The position numbers and the translations under genes are program-made. A stretch of DNA of 50,015 nucleotides from IMG/VR virus record IMGVR_UViG_2917403263_000001; one strand, given 5' to 3'. This DNA comes from a virus. Lineage: Duplodnaviria > Heunggongvirae > Uroviricota > Caudoviricetes. Shown here in pieces: positions 2,715-48,462 of this stretch (positions are counted from its first letter, which is position 1; each line of letters opens with the position of its first letter). Under the pieces are notes generated by a model, which saw nothing but the letters and a program-made list of their open reading frames with translations, searched no databases and was not told where the DNA came from.

Positions 2715-3314
2715 TCAGAATTTATAACCGACACCAACGATGAAACCGTCAGTGCGCCAGTCGCCACTGCCGGAACCTTCATAAGCAAGGTCAATGGCCA
2801 CGGATTCGGTCGGGTTAAACTGCACGCCAGCCCCCCACGCCAGAGACGTGTTGCTGTGGCGACCGCCATCACTTCCGGTCAGCACATCGTGCGTTTTCCC
2901 CTTGTTGTCAGCTACGCGGAGATAATCCCCGGAAAACGTCGAAACACGGCTGTAAGCCACACCCGCCATCGCATAAGCACTGAACCATTCATTCACGCGC
3001 ACAGATGGTCCCGCCATCATGCTGAACCAGCGGTTATGCGCTGAATCTTCATGCCAGCGGGTATCGCTGTAACGGGTAATCTGGCGATTCTTGTCTCCTG
3101 CATAGCTGAATGACGTCACCAACCCCAGCGTGTCCGTAAATTCATAACGGTATTTCACGTTAATGCCCTTCAGGTCATCGTTGCCGGGCATATCAGTATG
3201 GGACTGAAGATACCCGCCGCTTAGTGTGGACTGATGCTCTACTGCACTCGCTGGCGTACCAGCGGCGACCAGCCAGACTACTGCAGACAGAATAACAGCA
3301 CATAATTTACGCAT
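2715..3314 (-). CDS. lom: Lom outer membrane protein (Ail/Lom family)
   Basis: 199 aa with signal peptide and C-terminal GVGYKF beta-barrel terminus; sits between J and stf as in lambda. Confidence 0.85.
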
Positions 3315-27347: not shown

Positions 27348-27641
27348 TCAGTACCTTCGTAATGCAAGGATTTTTGAAACATTCCCACGTGCACGTATCA
27401 CCAGCACGCAGAACAGCAGATTAAAAAACACCACCAGCCAGTTCGCCGCTAACAGACGACCACACAGATAGCTGAGTGGCGCAAGGGCATAAAGCAGCAT
27501 CAGCAGCCAAGCCAGCCATGACATCAGCGGTTTATGTCTGGAGTCATGACGACGATAAAAAAAAAGCGTCAGCACGATAACCGTGCATAACGCTACATTC
27601 AGCAATCCAGAAAAGTTATTAGGCATTGCCGCCTCCTCCAC
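27348..27641 (-). CDS. Lysis-associated membrane protein (holin/antiholin-like)
   Basis: 97 aa with ~3 predicted TM segments between holin candidate and endolysin. Confidence 0.4.
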   Translation of the reverse strand: MEEAAMPNNFSGLLNVALCTVIVLTLFFYRRHDSRHKPLMSWLAWLLMLLYALAPLSYLCGRLLAANWLVVFFNLLFCVLVIRARGNVSKILALRRY

Positions 27642-28008
27642 CCCGCAGGCGGGAGAACAGGCCGGACACCAGTGATGCGATATCCTGCTGGTGGATGAAC
27701 GACAGAATCTTCACCGACACCACTGACACCAGCACTGCACACAATGCGTCGACAGGCGCTCCGTCAAACCCTGTATGCTTTACCAGCCAGGATGCCAGAA
27801 CCTCTGCACCCAGCACGCCGATAATGAACGACACCAGAAAATGCGCCGCCACACGCCACGCTGAAAGCGCCTGCGGTATCGTTGCCACAAATAACGCCCC
27901 GGCGAACGCACCAAACACAATCCCGAAATCCGTTCCGGTAAACAGCCCGAATACCGTCGCCCCGCCGAGCGCCGCAGCCGTGCCGGAACCGGATAAGGGT
28001 TCAGACAT
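27619..28008 (-). CDS. Putative holin
   Basis: Start MSEPLSGSG (SD aggag); Gly-rich multi-TM protein, first gene of the lysis block. Confidence 0.5.
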   Translation of the reverse strand: MSEPLSGSGTAAALGGATVFGLFTGTDFGIVFGAFAGALFVATIPQALSAWRVAAHFLVSFIIGVLGAEVLASWLVKHTGFDGAPVDALCAVLVSVVSVKILSFIHQQDIASLVSGLFSRLRGGGGGNA

Positions 28009-28199
28009 ACTTTTTTCTCCTGTAAATAAAAAAGGCCACCAGCGGCCCGTAAAAAACAACATCCCATCGTAGGAATCCGCAAATGCCTTTTGTGTGACAT
28101 AGTCTGATATGAAAAGCGAAGAATTAATGTACGGAAATAAGGATTACCAGAAATTCAGATTAATTTTCCTGTTTAAACGAGAAAAATTAATTTATATAC

Positions 28200-28293
28200 T
28201 TTTTGCACTTCCCGAGCGGGAGGTGGAAAGGAAATTCGTTATGTTTCACGGACTTTGTCCAGCGACCTTAATCCGACGGTCGCGTTTTTTTTT
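28200..28293 (+). ncRNA. Candidate small structured RNA, copy A (three hairpins ending in an intrinsic terminator)
   Basis: Possible TATACT -10 near 28188; hairpins cttcccg/cgggagg, ggac-ttt-gtcc, gcgacc-ttaatccgac-ggtcgc followed by U9; paralogous to 29130-29214 with compensatory stem changes. Confidence 0.35.
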
Positions 28294-28328
28294 GCGTCAT
28301 ATTCATCGTTGACTTACATGGCATTGCC

Positions 28329-28361
28329 ACACGGACATTATCAGTGTCCGTGTATTTTTTT
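28329..28361 (+). terminator. Second plus-strand intrinsic terminator
   Basis: acacggaca-ttatcag-tgtccgtgt 9-bp stem followed by U7. Confidence 0.55.
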
Positions 28362-28372
28362 GAATTCAACAC

Positions 28373-28398
28373 AAAAAAAACCGCCTGGTGCGGCGGTT
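28373..28398 (-). terminator. Minus-strand intrinsic terminator (module A)
   Basis: aaccgcc-tggtgc-ggcggtt hairpin followed by U8 on the minus strand. Confidence 0.6.
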
Positions 28399-28560
28399 GA
28401 ACAATGCTGAAGATGAATCATTTTTATTGTAGTGAAATTGAGATGTTGTGGACTTCCCTGAATATCTGACTTTATGCCAGACATTGTGGTTACAGAAACA
28501 CAATGTAAACCACCCTCATACCGGGGAACATCTCTTTGGTGTTATTTACAACACCGGAAT
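28399..28560 (-). ncRNA. Candidate minus-strand small RNA, copy A (ends at terminator 28373-28398)
   Basis: ~160 bp with conserved blocks shared with 29390-29560 (GGTGGTTT, GTCAGATATTYMGGGA); no conserved ORF. Confidence 0.3.
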
Positions 28561-28772
28561 GATGCATTTCCGACTCTCCAAAGAAACACAATATTTCTAC
28601 CGAAAATACACCATTCCGCTATTGTAAAATAACAGCGCAAACCACTGACTAGCCAATTACAAATCGGTGTTCCTGTTTCCTGAGCAATGTTTACTCTTCA
28701 TATGAGTTCTTGTCGGGGAATAAAACCACTCACCCGGAAGACAGACGTATAATAACAAGGAATAAAATCACT

Positions 28773-28928
28773 TCAACTGTAATAATCTGAAAAATGATTC
28801 TTGCCACATGAAAACACCCACCAACCGTCCATTACCACAAATAAAAAAGCCTTCACCGCGTCGCGGTTTTCCATTTTCTTTACTTCTACAATAGCCTTAC
28901 GGGTTTTCTTTTTGAAAATCACAAACAT
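28773..28928 (-). CDS. Small hypothetical protein (51 aa)
   Basis: ATG with SD aaggaaaag; MFVIFKKKTRKAIVEVKKMENRDAVKAFLFVVMDGWWVFSCGKNHFSDYYS. Confidence 0.3.
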   Translation of the reverse strand: MFVIFKKKTRKAIVEVKKMENRDAVKAFLFVVMDGWWVFSCGKNHFSDYYS

Positions 28929-29129
28929 CGTGACTTTTCCTTTTAGTGGGTGAACCTCTGCCCGGGGTGCCCAACCCACAGAGAAAGTCACACTGACCAT
29001 CCCGTAAGCTCACCCCTGAAAGGTTCTGTGGTCTTTGATCCGCGCCGGGCGTAGCGCAAAGAATGAAATAAGCCTTATCTGAAATTAAGGTTAATCTAAG
29101 GATTTAAACCATTCTAAATGCTTAGTAGT

Positions 29130-29214
29130 ATAAACATGCCTCTTGAAAGAGGCAGATACTAATCCTTCTTCATGGACCTTGTCCCGCGGCTTTAATCCGA
29201 CAGCCGCGTTTTTT
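29130..29214 (+). ncRNA. Candidate small structured RNA, copy B
   Basis: Hairpins gcctct-tgaa-agaggc, ggac-ctt-gtcc, cgcggc-tttaatccgac-gccgcg followed by U6; same architecture and loop as copy A. Confidence 0.35.
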
Positions 29215-29364
29215 GCCTGTATATTACCATATGATGCAAATATAAAAGGCTCACCGAAGCGAACCTGATTCAAGCGTACTTGCTGCTACAACAGGGTTAT
29301 AATACCCCAACCACATAACGCCATGTGTTCTTTTCTAATGAGTTGGTGATAATTTTATACAAGC

Positions 29365-29389
29365 AAAAAAAACCGCCTGTTAAGGCGGT
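29365..29389 (-). terminator. Minus-strand intrinsic terminator (module B)
   Basis: accgcc-tgttaa-ggcggt hairpin followed by U8 on the minus strand. Confidence 0.6.
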
Positions 29390-29560
29390 GGTCAAATCAT
29401 GAAGAGTATTATTATAATATAGGTGAGGTGTCGGGTGCCTCCCGAAATATCTGACATTCCATCAGATACTGTAGTTTCCCCGCTAAACAACCACTAAAAC
29501 CACCCCCGCACATGGGGTTCACCTCATTTTGTGATGTTAACAACATCGGGATAGTGCATA
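29390..29560 (-). ncRNA. Candidate minus-strand small RNA, copy B
   Basis: Paralogous to 28399-28560 at ~60-65% identity, ending at an equivalent terminator. Confidence 0.3.
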
Positions 29561-29749
29561 ATCAGCCCCAGCTAGGAAATATCAAAAATCCCACTAATAA
29601 TGCACTATTCCGATAGTGTCAAAAAAACACAGCACTGAAACTATAACTGGTCTCCGTTATAATTCGGGGGAGCGATAAAGGAGTATACGAGACCTTTCCC
29701 CGCGAGAAAAAACGCCAGTGCTGAAAAACCTGTGCCTCATTTGTTTTGC

Positions 29750-29824
<75 letters not shown>

Positions 29825-29827
29825 ATA

Positions 29828-29903
<76 letters not shown>

Positions 29904-30133
29904 ATTATTTCCTCAGACGGGAATATATCGCAACCATTCCCCCTGAAGAACTGCGGCAAATAATACGTTTAAATAATAAAACTGCAATACACCATAACGT
30001 CAAGTTTTGTAAAGTTATTTTTAGGTTTCTATTTTGTCAACTTTTTATATAAATTTAAAAAACAGTCATAAATGTACGCAAAATATATTTTATACAACAA
30101 TTTAATCGCGCGTTTTTTTAATCAGGCTTCAGA

Positions 30134-30161
30134 AATAAAAAAACCCGCCAGTGGCGGGTTT
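30134..30161. terminator. Bidirectional intrinsic terminator; candidate tR' ~100 nt downstream of Q
   Basis: A7-cccgcc-agt-ggcggg-T5; U-runs on both strands. Confidence 0.6.
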
Positions 30162-30232
30162 TTAAGTTCACGTTTCTGGTTAACCTCGCGATACAGCTTG
30201 CGAAGCGTAACTGAATTGAAGCAGTTTATTGC
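30162..30232 (-). promoter_or_regulatory. Candidate late promoter (PR'-like) / Q-utilisation region
   Basis: Between Q stop and the terminator; minus strand has TTGCAA-17 bp-TTCAAT-like elements; location by analogy with lambda PR'-qut-tR'. Confidence 0.35.
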
Positions 30233-30778
30233 TCACTTTGCAATAGTTTTTTTTTGTGCCGTGAACATTGGTTTATAAAGCATAAATTCAGCAATCATCA
30301 GCCATTGATCGATACGACGTCGACAGGTAATTAATGTCCAGTCAGGATGATTTTCATTTAACTGCTCTGCCATTTTCAGTTTGCTCATTCCCCGCCCTTC
30401 ATATCGTTGTCGGAGGATGCTAATTAATCCCGGATACTCGACCAGCACTTCGCTAATTACCCGATCAATACATAACGCCTCGGCATCAGTACAATGAGAC
30501 AACCAGCTTTTCTGCTTACCGTCGAGCATTTCCCGCAAAAATGCCTCCAGTTCCGTCTTATCAATTCCCGCTTTTTTCATCCTGCGCAGAGCTTCATTGA
30601 TGGCTGTTTTCGTCAATTTTTTGGATGCCAGCAACTGGTTAAACATATTCCCCGTCTTACCGCCGCCAATATACGACCAGCGCCCCCACATGCGCAGTTT
30701 TCCCTGAATCCAGACACTTTCCAGCGTGGTGAGACGAAGGTGTTCCCCGCTTTTTCCTGTATTTGTTGGGTAAATCAT
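30233..30778 (-). CDS. Q: Late antiterminator Q
   Basis: Start MIYPTNTGKSGEHL (SD aggaagg); ~181 aa; position directly upstream of a short terminated leader, tRNAs and lysis genes; Q-family assignment recalled. Confidence 0.65.
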   Translation of the reverse strand: MIYPTNTGKSGEHLRLTTLESVWIQGKLRMWGRWSYIGGGKTGNMFNQLLASKKLTKTAINEALRRMKKAGIDKTELEAFLREMLDGKQKSWLSHCTDAEALCIDRVISEVLVEYPGLISILRQRYEGRGMSKLKMAEQLNENHPDWTLITCRRRIDQWLMIAEFMLYKPMFTAQKKTIAK

Positions 30779-31068
30779 AAATAACCTTCCTTTCTCCAGA
30801 TTTCTTGTGTGCGAAAAACACCTTCTGCATGCATCAGGCGTAATTCTTCTTTGGTGTAATCGCTGGTTTTTACTCTCCCGTCGATTAAATCGTGGCATGA
30901 GCTACAGGCAATTGCAGCCTGCATATCGTGTGGCTTTGTCGCTGTTCCACACGTCCCCGCCAGTCTGTAATGCGCCAGCACGGAAGTTTCGGGATTGTGA
31001 TTGCAGTACCCAGGAATTCTGACCTGACACATCTGGCCCCGCGCCGCTTTACGTAAATCTGCCATCAC
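30775..31068 (-). CDS. ybcO: YbcO-like (DUF1364) Cys-rich putative nuclease
   Basis: 97 aa MMADLRKAARGQMCQVRIPGYCNHNPETSVLAHYRL..CSSCHD; coupled to Q (4-nt overlap). Confidence 0.65.
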   Translation of the reverse strand: MMADLRKAARGQMCQVRIPGYCNHNPETSVLAHYRLAGTCGTATKPHDMQAAIACSSCHDLIDGRVKTSDYTKEELRLMHAEGVFRTQEIWRKEGYL

Positions 31069-34159: not shown

Positions 34160-34315
34160 TTACTCCTCAGGTTCGTAAGCTGTGAAGACAGCGACCTCCG
34201 TCTGGCCGGTTCGGATTCGTACCTCGCAGAGGTCTTTCCTCGTTACCAGTGCCGTCACTATGACGGTTAAACAGATGACGATCAGGGCGATTAACATCGC
34301 CTTTTGCTGCTTCAT
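34160..34315 (-). CDS. hok: Hok/Gef-family type I toxin
   Basis: 51 aa MKQQKAMLIALIVICLTVIVTALVTRKDLCEVRIRTGQTEVAVFTAYEPEE; SD aaggag; the longer in-frame ORF 34160-34372 may be the mok-like leader. Confidence 0.8.
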   Translation of the reverse strand: MKQQKAMLIALIVICLTVIVTALVTRKDLCEVRIRTGQTEVAVFTAYEPEE

Positions 34316-34582
34316 AGCCTGCTTCTCCTTGACCTTTCGGTCCGTAAGAGGCAATCTATATGTGACGAGCATATAGGGGCCTCACTTCGATTTATAGTCG
34401 GGTGGGGCTTTTCTCTATCTGCCTTTGGTAGCATGCCCGAGGCAGATAGCCTCAAGCACCCGCAGCAATTCTACTTAACTATCTTTTTCCCGCAAATCGT
34501 TTTTATCCCCAGCGGCAAATCGAATACACCATCAGCGCCACCGCCATTGCAATTCCTACCGTTGTGAATGCTTCAGGCCAAC

Positions 34583-48086: not shown

Positions 48087-48281
48087 ATGCGGTATGAAAA
48101 AGTCAAACCATGCCCTTTTTGTGGTTGTCCATCAGTAACGGTGAAAGCCATTTCAGGATATTACCGCGCGAAGTGTAACGGATGCGAATCCCGAACCGGC
48201 TATGGTGGAAGTGAAAAAGAAGCACTCGAACGATGGAATAAACGAACCACTGGAAATAATAATGGAGGTGTTCATGTATAA
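48087..48281 (+). CDS. ralR: Restriction alleviation protein Lar / RalR
   Basis: MRYEKVKPCPFCGCPSVTVKAISGYYRAKCNGCESRTGYGG; matches Rac Lar/RalR (recalled). Confidence 0.8.
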   Translation: MRYEKVKPCPFCGCPSVTVKAISGYYRAKCNGCESRTGYGGSEKEALERWNKRTTGNNNGGVHV

Positions 48282-48462
48282 AATTACCGCCACTATTGAA
48301 AAGGAAGGTGGCACTCCTACTAACTGGACAAGGTACTCAAAAACAAAATTAACCAAATCAGAATGCGAAAAAATGCTCTCAGGTAAAAAAGAAGCAGGCG
48401 TTTCCAGAGAGCAGAAAGTAAAACTGATAAATTTTAATTGCGAGAAAATTCAGTCCTCGTGA
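48276..48462 (+). CDS. ydaC: YdaC-like small protein
   Basis: MYKITATIEKEGGTPTNWTRYSK..; SD ggagg; overlaps ralR end. Confidence 0.55.

Follow-up and report, generated by a model that had tools for sequence, protein, structure and literature searches.

Small RNAs (sRNAs) encoded in the late operons of lambdoid prophages rewire host regulation in pathogenic Escherichia coli; as examples, AgvB aids colonization, AsxR has been linked to heme use, and StxS affects toxin and RpoS. In enterohemorrhagic E. coli (EHEC) strain Sakai, Tree et al. (2014) described convergent sRNA pairs 3′ of the late promoter PR′, in the moron site, of eight prophages, with the anti-sRNAs AsxR and AgvB as antisense partners. 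These are RNAs of 51–60 nt in which about 42 nt at the 3′ end are conserved and 14–18 nt at the 5′ end vary, a type by which a core-genome sRNA is sequestered through target mimicry (PMC4104026). Copies of STnc100, a sense partner in such pairs, are expressed in strain EDL933 (PMC5331693), and StxS, a short PR′ transcript ended at tR′, is an Hfq-dependent regulator (PMC7547250). In enteropathogenic E. coli (EPEC) the STnc100-related sense RNA PasD and the antisense RNAs PasA and PasC, which lie by holin and terB, have been reported (Pearl Mizrahi et al. 2021; Zhu et al. 2026), with PasD and PasA abundant, Hfq-dependent, and verified by Northern blot (PMC8550237). The present study analyzes the corresponding slot in 50,015 nt of viral DNA (Caudoviricetes; IMG/VR record IMGVR_UViG_2917403263_000001), the whole of which is called the window. 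It is a lambdoid, phiP27-like prophage with late genes on the minus strand, in which about 1.7 kb without annotated genes, between the tRNA genes and the lysis genes, hold two copies of a structured-RNA module. We consider it probable (about 0.7), judging from sequence, that each module is a convergent pair of sRNA genes in the moron slot of the late operon and that the products are likely trans-acting RNAs of Hfq type. This reading draws on anatomy, conservation, covariation, strand assignment, homology, and synteny, all of which were observed directly. The convergent arrangement is already known from EHEC prophages (PMC4104026), and what is found here is the same kind of arrangement in another phage lineage.

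Two convergent modules in one late operon

An initial annotation, made from the letters of the window, had proposed that a unit of ~450 bp occurs twice, at about 28200–28560 and 29130–29560. The duplication was borne out. Aligned with MAFFT, 28100–28640 and 29030–29640 had a mean column identity of 75%, and BLAST of each unit against the whole window found nothing but the other unit, matching at 85% identity along 46 nt (E 7e-9) and at 66% along 273 nt (E 2e-9), with no third copy in the whole 50 kb when both units served as queries. By alignment the units are longer than first drawn and span 28134–28636 (copy A) and 29065–29636 (copy B), at ~66–85% identity. In each copy the plus strand, antisense to the late operon, carries a promoter, a three-hairpin RNA of ~80 nt, and an intrinsic terminator; the minus strand, in the sense of the late operon, carries a long leader hairpin, a structured RNA of ~190 nt, and an intrinsic terminator, and the two RNA genes of each copy converge. 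The earlier view of the modules as antisense to the late transcript thus holds for the plus-strand RNA and fails for the minus-strand RNA. A minus-strand terminator in each copy had also been predicted and was found at 28398..28379 and 29389..29372, preceded by about 250 nt of conserved minus-strand sequence rather than ~160. Between 27900 and 30300 there are 14 terminator-like sites compared with 2.1 ± 1.5 in shuffled sequence, an approximately seven-fold enrichment, and promoters and T runs accord with the strand assignments of all the RNAs. Promoter assignments throughout are consensus matches only.

The antisense RNA

The antisense sRNA of copy B is predicted at 29138..29214 (plus strand, ~77 nt) behind a promoter at 29103..29131 that consists of a −35 element TTTAAA (29103–29108), a 17-nt spacer, and a −10 element TAGTAT (29126–29131). 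It comprises in order hairpin 1 (29138–29153), a U/C-rich single strand, the small hairpin GGAC-CTT-GTCC (29174–29184), and the terminator CGCGGCT/AGCCGCG (29185–29208), which has the loop UUAAUCCGAC, the same as in copy A, and runs into six T (U6 in the RNA). In copy A the promoter TTTAAA-17-TATACT (28172..28200, plus strand) precedes a predicted RNA of ~87 nt at 28207..28293, with hairpin 1 at 28206–28225, the small hairpin GGAC-TTT-GTCC at 28250–28260, and the terminator GCGACC/GGTCGC at 28262–28283, with loop TTAATCCGAC and then nine T. The two RNAs score 73.3 (copy A) and 104.1 bits (copy B) with R1, a covariance model of the antisense RNA built in this analysis, and fold at −29.2 kcal/mol (z −2.17) and −25.9 kcal/mol (z −4.04), respectively. 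Three plus-strand hairpins with a common loop, compensating terminator stems, and a GGAC-NTT-GTCC hairpin had been recognized in the initial annotation, and all are where it placed them. The 3′ module is alike in the two copies and the 5′ hairpin and single-stranded region differ. Copy A has in addition a second plus-strand terminator at 28329–28361 (11-bp stem and T7), without counterpart in copy B and with a counterpart in most relatives; read-through to it would yield a longer antisense form of ~155 nt.

Searching with the pattern GGAC-N-TTGTCC-N7-TTAATCCGAC recovered the family from 116 viral contigs and from 279 of 5,426 complete E. coli genomes (~5%), and among 185,579 species representatives the pattern occurred only in Escherichia ruysiae. 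Fifty distinct variants have in common the promoter TTTAAAC-N17-TA(A/G)TAT, a variable first hairpin, the U/C-rich strand, the GGAC hairpin, and the terminator. When the three-hairpin structure was laid on 31 distinct sequences, 95% of cells were paired and 8 pairs showed compensatory change, a result that none of 500 shuffles equaled and that compares with 37–56% paired in slid controls; there were 18 G.U cells and 7 A.C cells, which favors the plus strand. Loop variants outside the pattern, from loci found via the sense RNA and from a sequenced phage, had single substitutions only (TTAATCCGAT, TTAATTCGAC), so that covarying stems carry a nearly invariant loop.

This manner of change bears on whether the modules hold unannotated small protein-coding genes. 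Over the homologous stretch some RefSeq and GenBank records do have a “hypothetical protein”, but most have nothing annotated there. The initial annotation had listed a 23-codon and a 7-codon open reading frame (ORF) as the sole plus-strand ORFs over the hairpins, which was incomplete: a 67-codon ATG ORF (28109–28312) and a 41-codon TTG ORF (29143–29268) span them as well. The ORFs differ between copies, and none, the two longer ones included, was found to be conserved between the copies or among relatives. Substitutions track base pairing rather than codon structure. Many variants have ACG or GCG where the 7-codon ORF would start, and loss of the ATG, taken with 1-nt indels within hairpin 1, excludes a coding role for the antisense RNA. 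A protein-coding explanation was rejected on these grounds as very improbable, and the earlier conclusion that these are RNA genes was upheld by covariation on both strands and by the homology of the minus-strand RNA to STnc100 and PasD.

The same frames argue against type I toxin-antitoxin loci, also raised in the initial annotation, in which each structured RNA would act as antitoxin against the mRNA of a small toxin encoded opposite it. RalA and sok-like RNAs elsewhere in the prophage and short ORFs in each copy lend this some appeal, but neither strand has a conserved ORF for a small toxin and 1-nt indels break the frames. Opposite the sRNA, the minus-strand frame of copy B ends after 4 codons; in relatives it is broken by 1-nt indels, it is not hydrophobic, and no Rfam antitoxin family matches at the modules. 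We regard this explanation as close to refuted and have rejected it.

In the antisense RNA the 3′ part (~45 nt) is conserved and the 5′ part varies. According to PMC4104026, which cites Ishikawa et al. (2012), an Hfq-binding module comprises a U-rich stretch, a single or double hairpin, and a 3′ poly-U tail. The corresponding layout in copy B is UUCUUCAU, GGAC-CUU-GUCC, the terminator hairpin, and U6, and in copy A the tail is U9, suggesting putative Hfq binding. An Rfam scan had been proposed at the outset; it returned nothing for the plus-strand RNA, and for AsxR/AgvB (RF02703, RF02702) there was no match between 27950 and 30300 at E≤10. Applied to AsxR, R1 scored 5.3 bits with no homology detected, and it gave no match at E<10 at PasA (locus L003) or PasC (L004), PasB being negative also; homology of the plus-strand RNA to PasA, PasB, PasC, or AsxR/AgvB was accordingly rejected as far as R1 and Rfam can detect it. 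Literature searches with the motifs TTAATCCGAC and GGACTTTGTCC found only unrelated papers, and we could not find a catalogued family to which the RNA might be related. Prophage sites complementary to the invariant loop or to the copy B seed consisted only of the RNA's own antisense strand, with near-matches at chance level. Pairing between the two RNAs of a module, as for a sponge and its target, was tried as a candidate in nine diverse modules and discarded (RNAduplex z −1.6 to +1.1 compared with shuffles).

The sense RNA and its leader

On the minus strand the sense sRNA of copy B, at 29364..29551, has an STnc100/PasD-like core and ends with the terminator at 29389..29372 and a T run. It aligns end to end with Rfam family RF02076 (STnc100; model positions 1–206 of 206) at 42.9 bits and E 2e-7, below the threshold of 47; the outcome of the proposed Rfam scan was thus a sub-threshold family match on this strand. 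With the same model the experimentally validated PasD2 and PasD1 score 41.4 and 37.7 bits, the range in which copy B falls, and the Sakai Sp5 copy scores 207.7 bits. The copy A sense sRNA (28371..28541, minus strand; terminator at 28398..28379 with T run) is a diverged paralogue, 66% identical to copy B over 273 nt, with near-identical copies in loci L053, L066, L089, and L113, and it aligns with the family in an alignment (A3) of 17 relatives with PasD1 and PasD2. The consensus fold from RNAalifold, an outer helix with three to four inner hairpins and a terminator, has the same plan as STnc100. Tested on the alignment from which it was derived, it had 95.4% of cells paired, 17 compensatory pairs, none of 500 shuffles as good, and slid controls at 37–58%; a covariation test on homologous loci, as the initial annotation had suggested, thus gave compensatory pairs for the RNAs of both strands. 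The core had 20 G.U cells and 3 A.C cells, in agreement with the minus strand. From these comparisons, the minus-strand RNA is judged to be a distant relative of STnc100/PasD. Intrinsic terminators lie on the late strand between the candidate late promoter and the lysis genes, in the position of tR′, with further hairpins at 29266..29247 and 28048..28033, and the RNA's 3′ end is most simply read as a terminator of the tR′ type.

Upstream of the core is a long imperfect hairpin, at 29534..29625 in copy B (−35.5 kcal/mol, z −5.95, on the minus strand compared with −27.3 on the plus strand) and at 28542..28631 in copy A (−41.8 kcal/mol, z −8.4, compared with −19.8). Across relatives this leader of ~90 nt has 72 G.U and 2 A.C cells and folds far better on the late strand. 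Read on the plus strand, its upstream arm (29594–29629) is TAATAAT-GCACTATTCCGATAG, like a −10 element directed toward tRNA-Gly; this could be a divergent promoter, or it may simply be a by-product of the hairpin. Copy B has a consensus-like promoter, TTGATA-16-GATTAT, before the core, as do loci of the L001 type.

In about a quarter of loci, including L002, L009, L019, L028, L056, and others, the STnc100-like core is exchanged for an unrelated core of ~65 nt with leader hairpin and terminator kept, which points to modular exchange of the RNA body. Such replaceability would also be expected of a purely cis-acting leader, in which the minus-strand elements were only tR′-type terminators with processing or stability hairpins and the terminated RNA a by-product lacking trans function, the long-standing view of lambda 6S RNA. 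Compatible observations are that the stretch from tRNA-Gly to the sense-RNA terminator has no other flagged terminator, that the leader hairpin folds only on the late strand, and that four terminator-like hairpins stand in series before the holin. As a full account we think this unlikely, because the core has a conserved multi-hairpin structure of its own with compensatory changes, because the related RNAs PasD and STnc100 are abundant, are bound by Hfq, and have had targets mapped, and because even StxS, the PR′-tR′ by-product, proved to be a regulator (PMC7547250). A cis-acting leader is moreover compatible with a convergent sRNA pair rather than exclusive of it.

Relatives and described sRNA pairs

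Among the 5,426 complete E. coli genomes, the best relatives of the region reach only 86–88% identity. Typical relatives, like two sequenced phages, have the order Q, a terminator, a promoter (TTGCxx-16/17-TATTAT), and a tRNA array ending in tRNA-Gly, continuing with the leader hairpin, the sense RNA and its terminator, the convergent antisense RNA, and the holin. Most of the 116 viral contigs found through the antisense RNA have the convergent arrangement, most related loci have tRNA-Gly ~100–150 nt 5′ of the sense RNA, and compensatory changes in more than 100 related prophage loci support both structures. A scan with the leader motif gave 85 loci with the antisense RNA and 32 without it, a ratio biased toward the antisense RNA because the first scan had been anchored on it; in most of the 32 its place is taken by a second terminator of the same direction. 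In UMNK88-type copies of module B the spacer between the convergent RNAs contains a tRNA-like element, called by ARAGORN as an 82-nt “tRNA-Tyr” with anticodon ATA (L001 ~2900–3290, L053 795–876, L113 3299–3380), which is absent from the window.

Antisense control of late read-through by the plus-strand RNA, another early suggestion, is possible, and in its strong form the RNA would be mainly a cis-acting safety lock on the lysis genes, with convergent transcription, antisense pairing to transcripts leaking past the upstream terminator, or both silencing holin and terB in the lysogen. The idea is attractive because of the fixed position of the antisense RNA, which is always directly downstream of the sense terminator and upstream of the next late gene, and because of the second terminator that takes the slot in loci without it; unrelated antisense sRNAs (AsxR, PasA) also sit at equivalent positions in other prophages. 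Antisense RNA and second terminator do not strictly replace each other, however, since copy B possesses both. The paired region furthermore would lie ~130–290 nt upstream of the holin or terB start codon rather than over the ribosome binding site, and a variable seed joined to a conserved 3′ module of Hfq type is what marks a trans-acting sRNA. A lock as the main role is, in our judgment, quite improbable.

In Sakai prophage Sp5 the published layout was confirmed, STnc100 and AsxR abutting tail to tail after stx2B and downstream of PR′. The two sRNA genes of each module in the window likewise converge at their tails, in the interval from Q/PR′ to the next late ORF. The modules thus resemble the EHEC pairs, STnc100 or EcOnc27 facing AsxR or AgvB, in position downstream of Q and the tRNAs and upstream of the lysis genes, in convergent layout, in an STnc100-type sense partner and a short antisense partner with a variable 5′ part and a conserved 3′ hairpin-terminator module, and in having related but non-identical copies in many prophages. 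They differ in that the antisense RNA is predicted at 77–87 nt with an extra 5′ hairpin, not 51–60 nt, and is not detectably similar to AsxR/AgvB by sequence or covariance model; on the sense side, a long leader hairpin precedes a distant STnc100 relative; and the cassette directly follows a tRNA array rather than a toxin gene and is present as two in tandem. With STnc100 and with PasD1 and PasD2 of EPEC E2348/69 the sense RNA shares the full-length model match of copy B, a GGUGAA-CCCC hairpin and CGGGAGGCACCCG, a lambdoid late-region location, the orientation of Q, and a terminator with an AU-rich region before it. PasD, in contrast, has a promoter where the family described here has the 3′ arm of the leader hairpin, and its seed region differs. 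PasA and PasC (84 nt) are similar to the plus-strand RNA in antisense orientation to the late operon, in a position shortly before the holin or by terB, and in having a conserved 3′ end and variable 5′ part; they are dissimilar in sequence, which was also read directly, and in structure as modeled by R1, and in E2348/69 an esterase gene separates PasA from PasD2.

These comparisons extend the convergent-pair design to phiP27-like and related phages of commensal, animal, and enterotoxigenic E. coli strains. The antisense partner in the phiP27-like group is distinct in sequence and absent from Rfam, and the sense partner is too diverged for Rfam-based annotation. The weight of the finding is moderate, the concept having been published already and the functions of the RNAs here being predicted ones.

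Function of the modules

Among the functions offered in the initial annotation, sRNA regulators fit best, given the covariation and the STnc100/PasD homology. We propose that in the lysogen the sense-RNA terminator would halt transcription arriving from upstream, so that the RNA would accumulate as a stable small RNA, which may be released by processing; after induction, Q-modified polymerase would pass the terminator into the lysis genes. The antisense RNA would be made independently from its own promoter, with an end at ~80 nt or, at the second terminator, ~155 nt, and would join a variable 5′ hairpin and single-stranded “seed” to a conserved 3′ module of the usual Hfq-binding design. Both RNAs would most likely be trans-acting base-pairing regulators or sponges of host RNAs, as are their EHEC and EPEC counterparts, and since the single-stranded seeds of the two copies differ, their targets would differ also. 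We infer transcription itself, Hfq dependence, trans targets, and Q read-through.

Several points weigh against convergent pairs of dedicated trans-acting sRNAs. The covariation sets are of closely related sequences, the second hairpin and loop of the antisense RNA are fixed by the search pattern, and the sense-RNA test has the circularity given above. Copy A has no match to RF02076 at E≤10, and in Rfam the sense RNA is sub-threshold generally, typical relatives scoring only 22 bits. About one quarter to one third of sense-RNA loci are without an antisense partner, so the pair is not obligatory. A conserved promoter directly 5′ of the sense core was considered and rejected: most relatives have TTTGTA-16-GTGATG instead, and the promoter is therefore not relied on. 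The transcript probably starts upstream of the Rfam-defined 5′ end, as the leader hairpin also implies, and the RNA may consequently be a by-product of processing and not a dedicated gene. Finally, as the antisense RNA has no detectable homology to AsxR/AgvB, PasA, PasB, and PasC, their function can be transferred to it by analogy only.

A more ambitious possibility, which we hold as tentative and rather doubtful, is that the cassette would be one late-gene control unit and not two cargo sRNAs. The tRNAs and the STnc100-like RNA would form one constitutive transcript from the late promoter, cut at the G.U-rich leader by, for example, RNase III; the slot behind the terminator would be kept for a backup block against lysis leakage; and the antisense RNA would represent a new family of Hfq sRNAs or anti-sRNAs with a nearly invariant 10-nt terminator loop. 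If true, this would be a phage version of a tRNA-trailer-derived sRNA, with either a second terminator or a convergent antisense sRNA gene as the leakage block. The sRNA sponge 3′ETS-leuZ is cut from the trailer of a tRNA operon. As there, the structured RNA in the window ends in the operon terminator directly 3′ of the last tRNA with no flagged terminator between; unlike 3′ETS-leuZ, copy A and PasD have no upstream tRNA, and processing here is hypothetical. Similarity to lambda 6S RNA and StxS would consist in a constitutive short late-leader transcript ended by a terminator that Q is predicted to override, with the difference that, if the analogy holds, the terminated transcript here would also include two tRNAs and a processing hairpin.

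Origin of the duplication

Related E. coli prophages have one module, with ATCC 8739, M19, and UMNK88 as examples of single-module strains, and the double arrangement was found in none of the complete E. coli genomes and in three IMG/VR contigs. UMNK88-type E. coli prophages have terB and a DUF3927 gene between cassette and holin. Between the two modules of the window, on the minus strand, is a 5′ remnant of 27 codons of a terB-family gene (28847..28927; 24 of 27 residues identical to TerB of E. coli UMNK88) with its conserved leader (~28928–29060), and a three-way alignment showed the rest of terB and the DUF3927 gene replaced by a segment of ~760 bp containing copy A. Replacement of most of terB through recombination gave rise to the duplication; the second copy came by recombination with another prophage, with destruction of terB. 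The tandem and diverged duplication is an example of recombination building sRNA paralogues with new seed regions. At the recombination junction a consensus scan finds a candidate promoter, TTGAAG-16-TATTAT with TG (28749..28776, minus strand), which could drive the copy A sense RNA.

The terB leader shows almost no differences when the window is compared with two E. coli prophages, which elsewhere are ~87% identical; it was considered as a structured element (28925–29075, minus strand) and set aside, its fold having a z of only −1.5. In Escherichia phage SerU-LTIIb (KU052038; locus L123), an LT-IIb toxin prophage, the segment of tRNA, small-RNA cassette, and holin is also duplicated, and duplication of the region by recombination is therefore recurrent.

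Late-operon context

The gene for the Q-type late antiterminator is at 30233..30898 (minus strand; Pfam DUF1133 347 bits, Phage_antitermQ 27.1 bits), its homologues are annotated as antitermination protein Q, and an internal Met is the probable start, giving a product of ~181 aa. Directly 3′ is an intrinsic terminator (30139..30163, minus strand; 11-bp stem followed by a T run), likewise present in loci L124 and L007. The tRNA array follows a candidate sigma-70 promoter read from the sequence as TTGCAG-16-TATTAT (29940..29967, minus strand), possibly the late promoter PR′, with counterparts TTGCGA-16-TATTAT in phage vB_EcoS-683R6 and TTGCTA-17-TATTAT in L007. ARAGORN and Rfam identify tRNA-Thr(UGU) and tRNA-Gly(UCC) at 29750..29903 (minus strand). 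Within the ~110 nt between tRNA-Gly and the leader hairpin (29640–29749, minus strand) is a long-range inverted repeat with the arms AGCACUGG and CAGUGCUG; a U run comes after it, and it is kept in relatives even where the sequence between its arms is different.

Beyond the sense RNA of copy B, a second late-strand terminator-like hairpin (29238..29266, minus strand) is homologous to the GGCTCGCTACGGCGGGCC-TTTTT hairpin that holds the slot in loci without the antisense sRNA. The modules are followed by two holins and a GH108 endolysin. One holin gene (Pfam Phage_holin_8) occupies 27619..28008 on the minus strand, most likely starting with the ATG at 28008, which a conserved AGGAGAAAAA-N-ATGTCTGAACCC motif marks. 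A GC hairpin with T run, terminator-like and kept in related loci, is at 28033..28048 (minus strand), ~15 nt upstream of the holin ribosome binding site, the fourth such signal in the late-strand series; the lysis cassette therefore has its own terminator-like signal in front of it. Elsewhere in the window Rfam matched a full-length RalA antitoxin RNA (48280–48458, minus strand, 213 bits) and a sok-like antitoxin RNA (34313–34461, minus strand, 110 bits), and the prophage therefore has toxin-antitoxin RNAs outside the modules.

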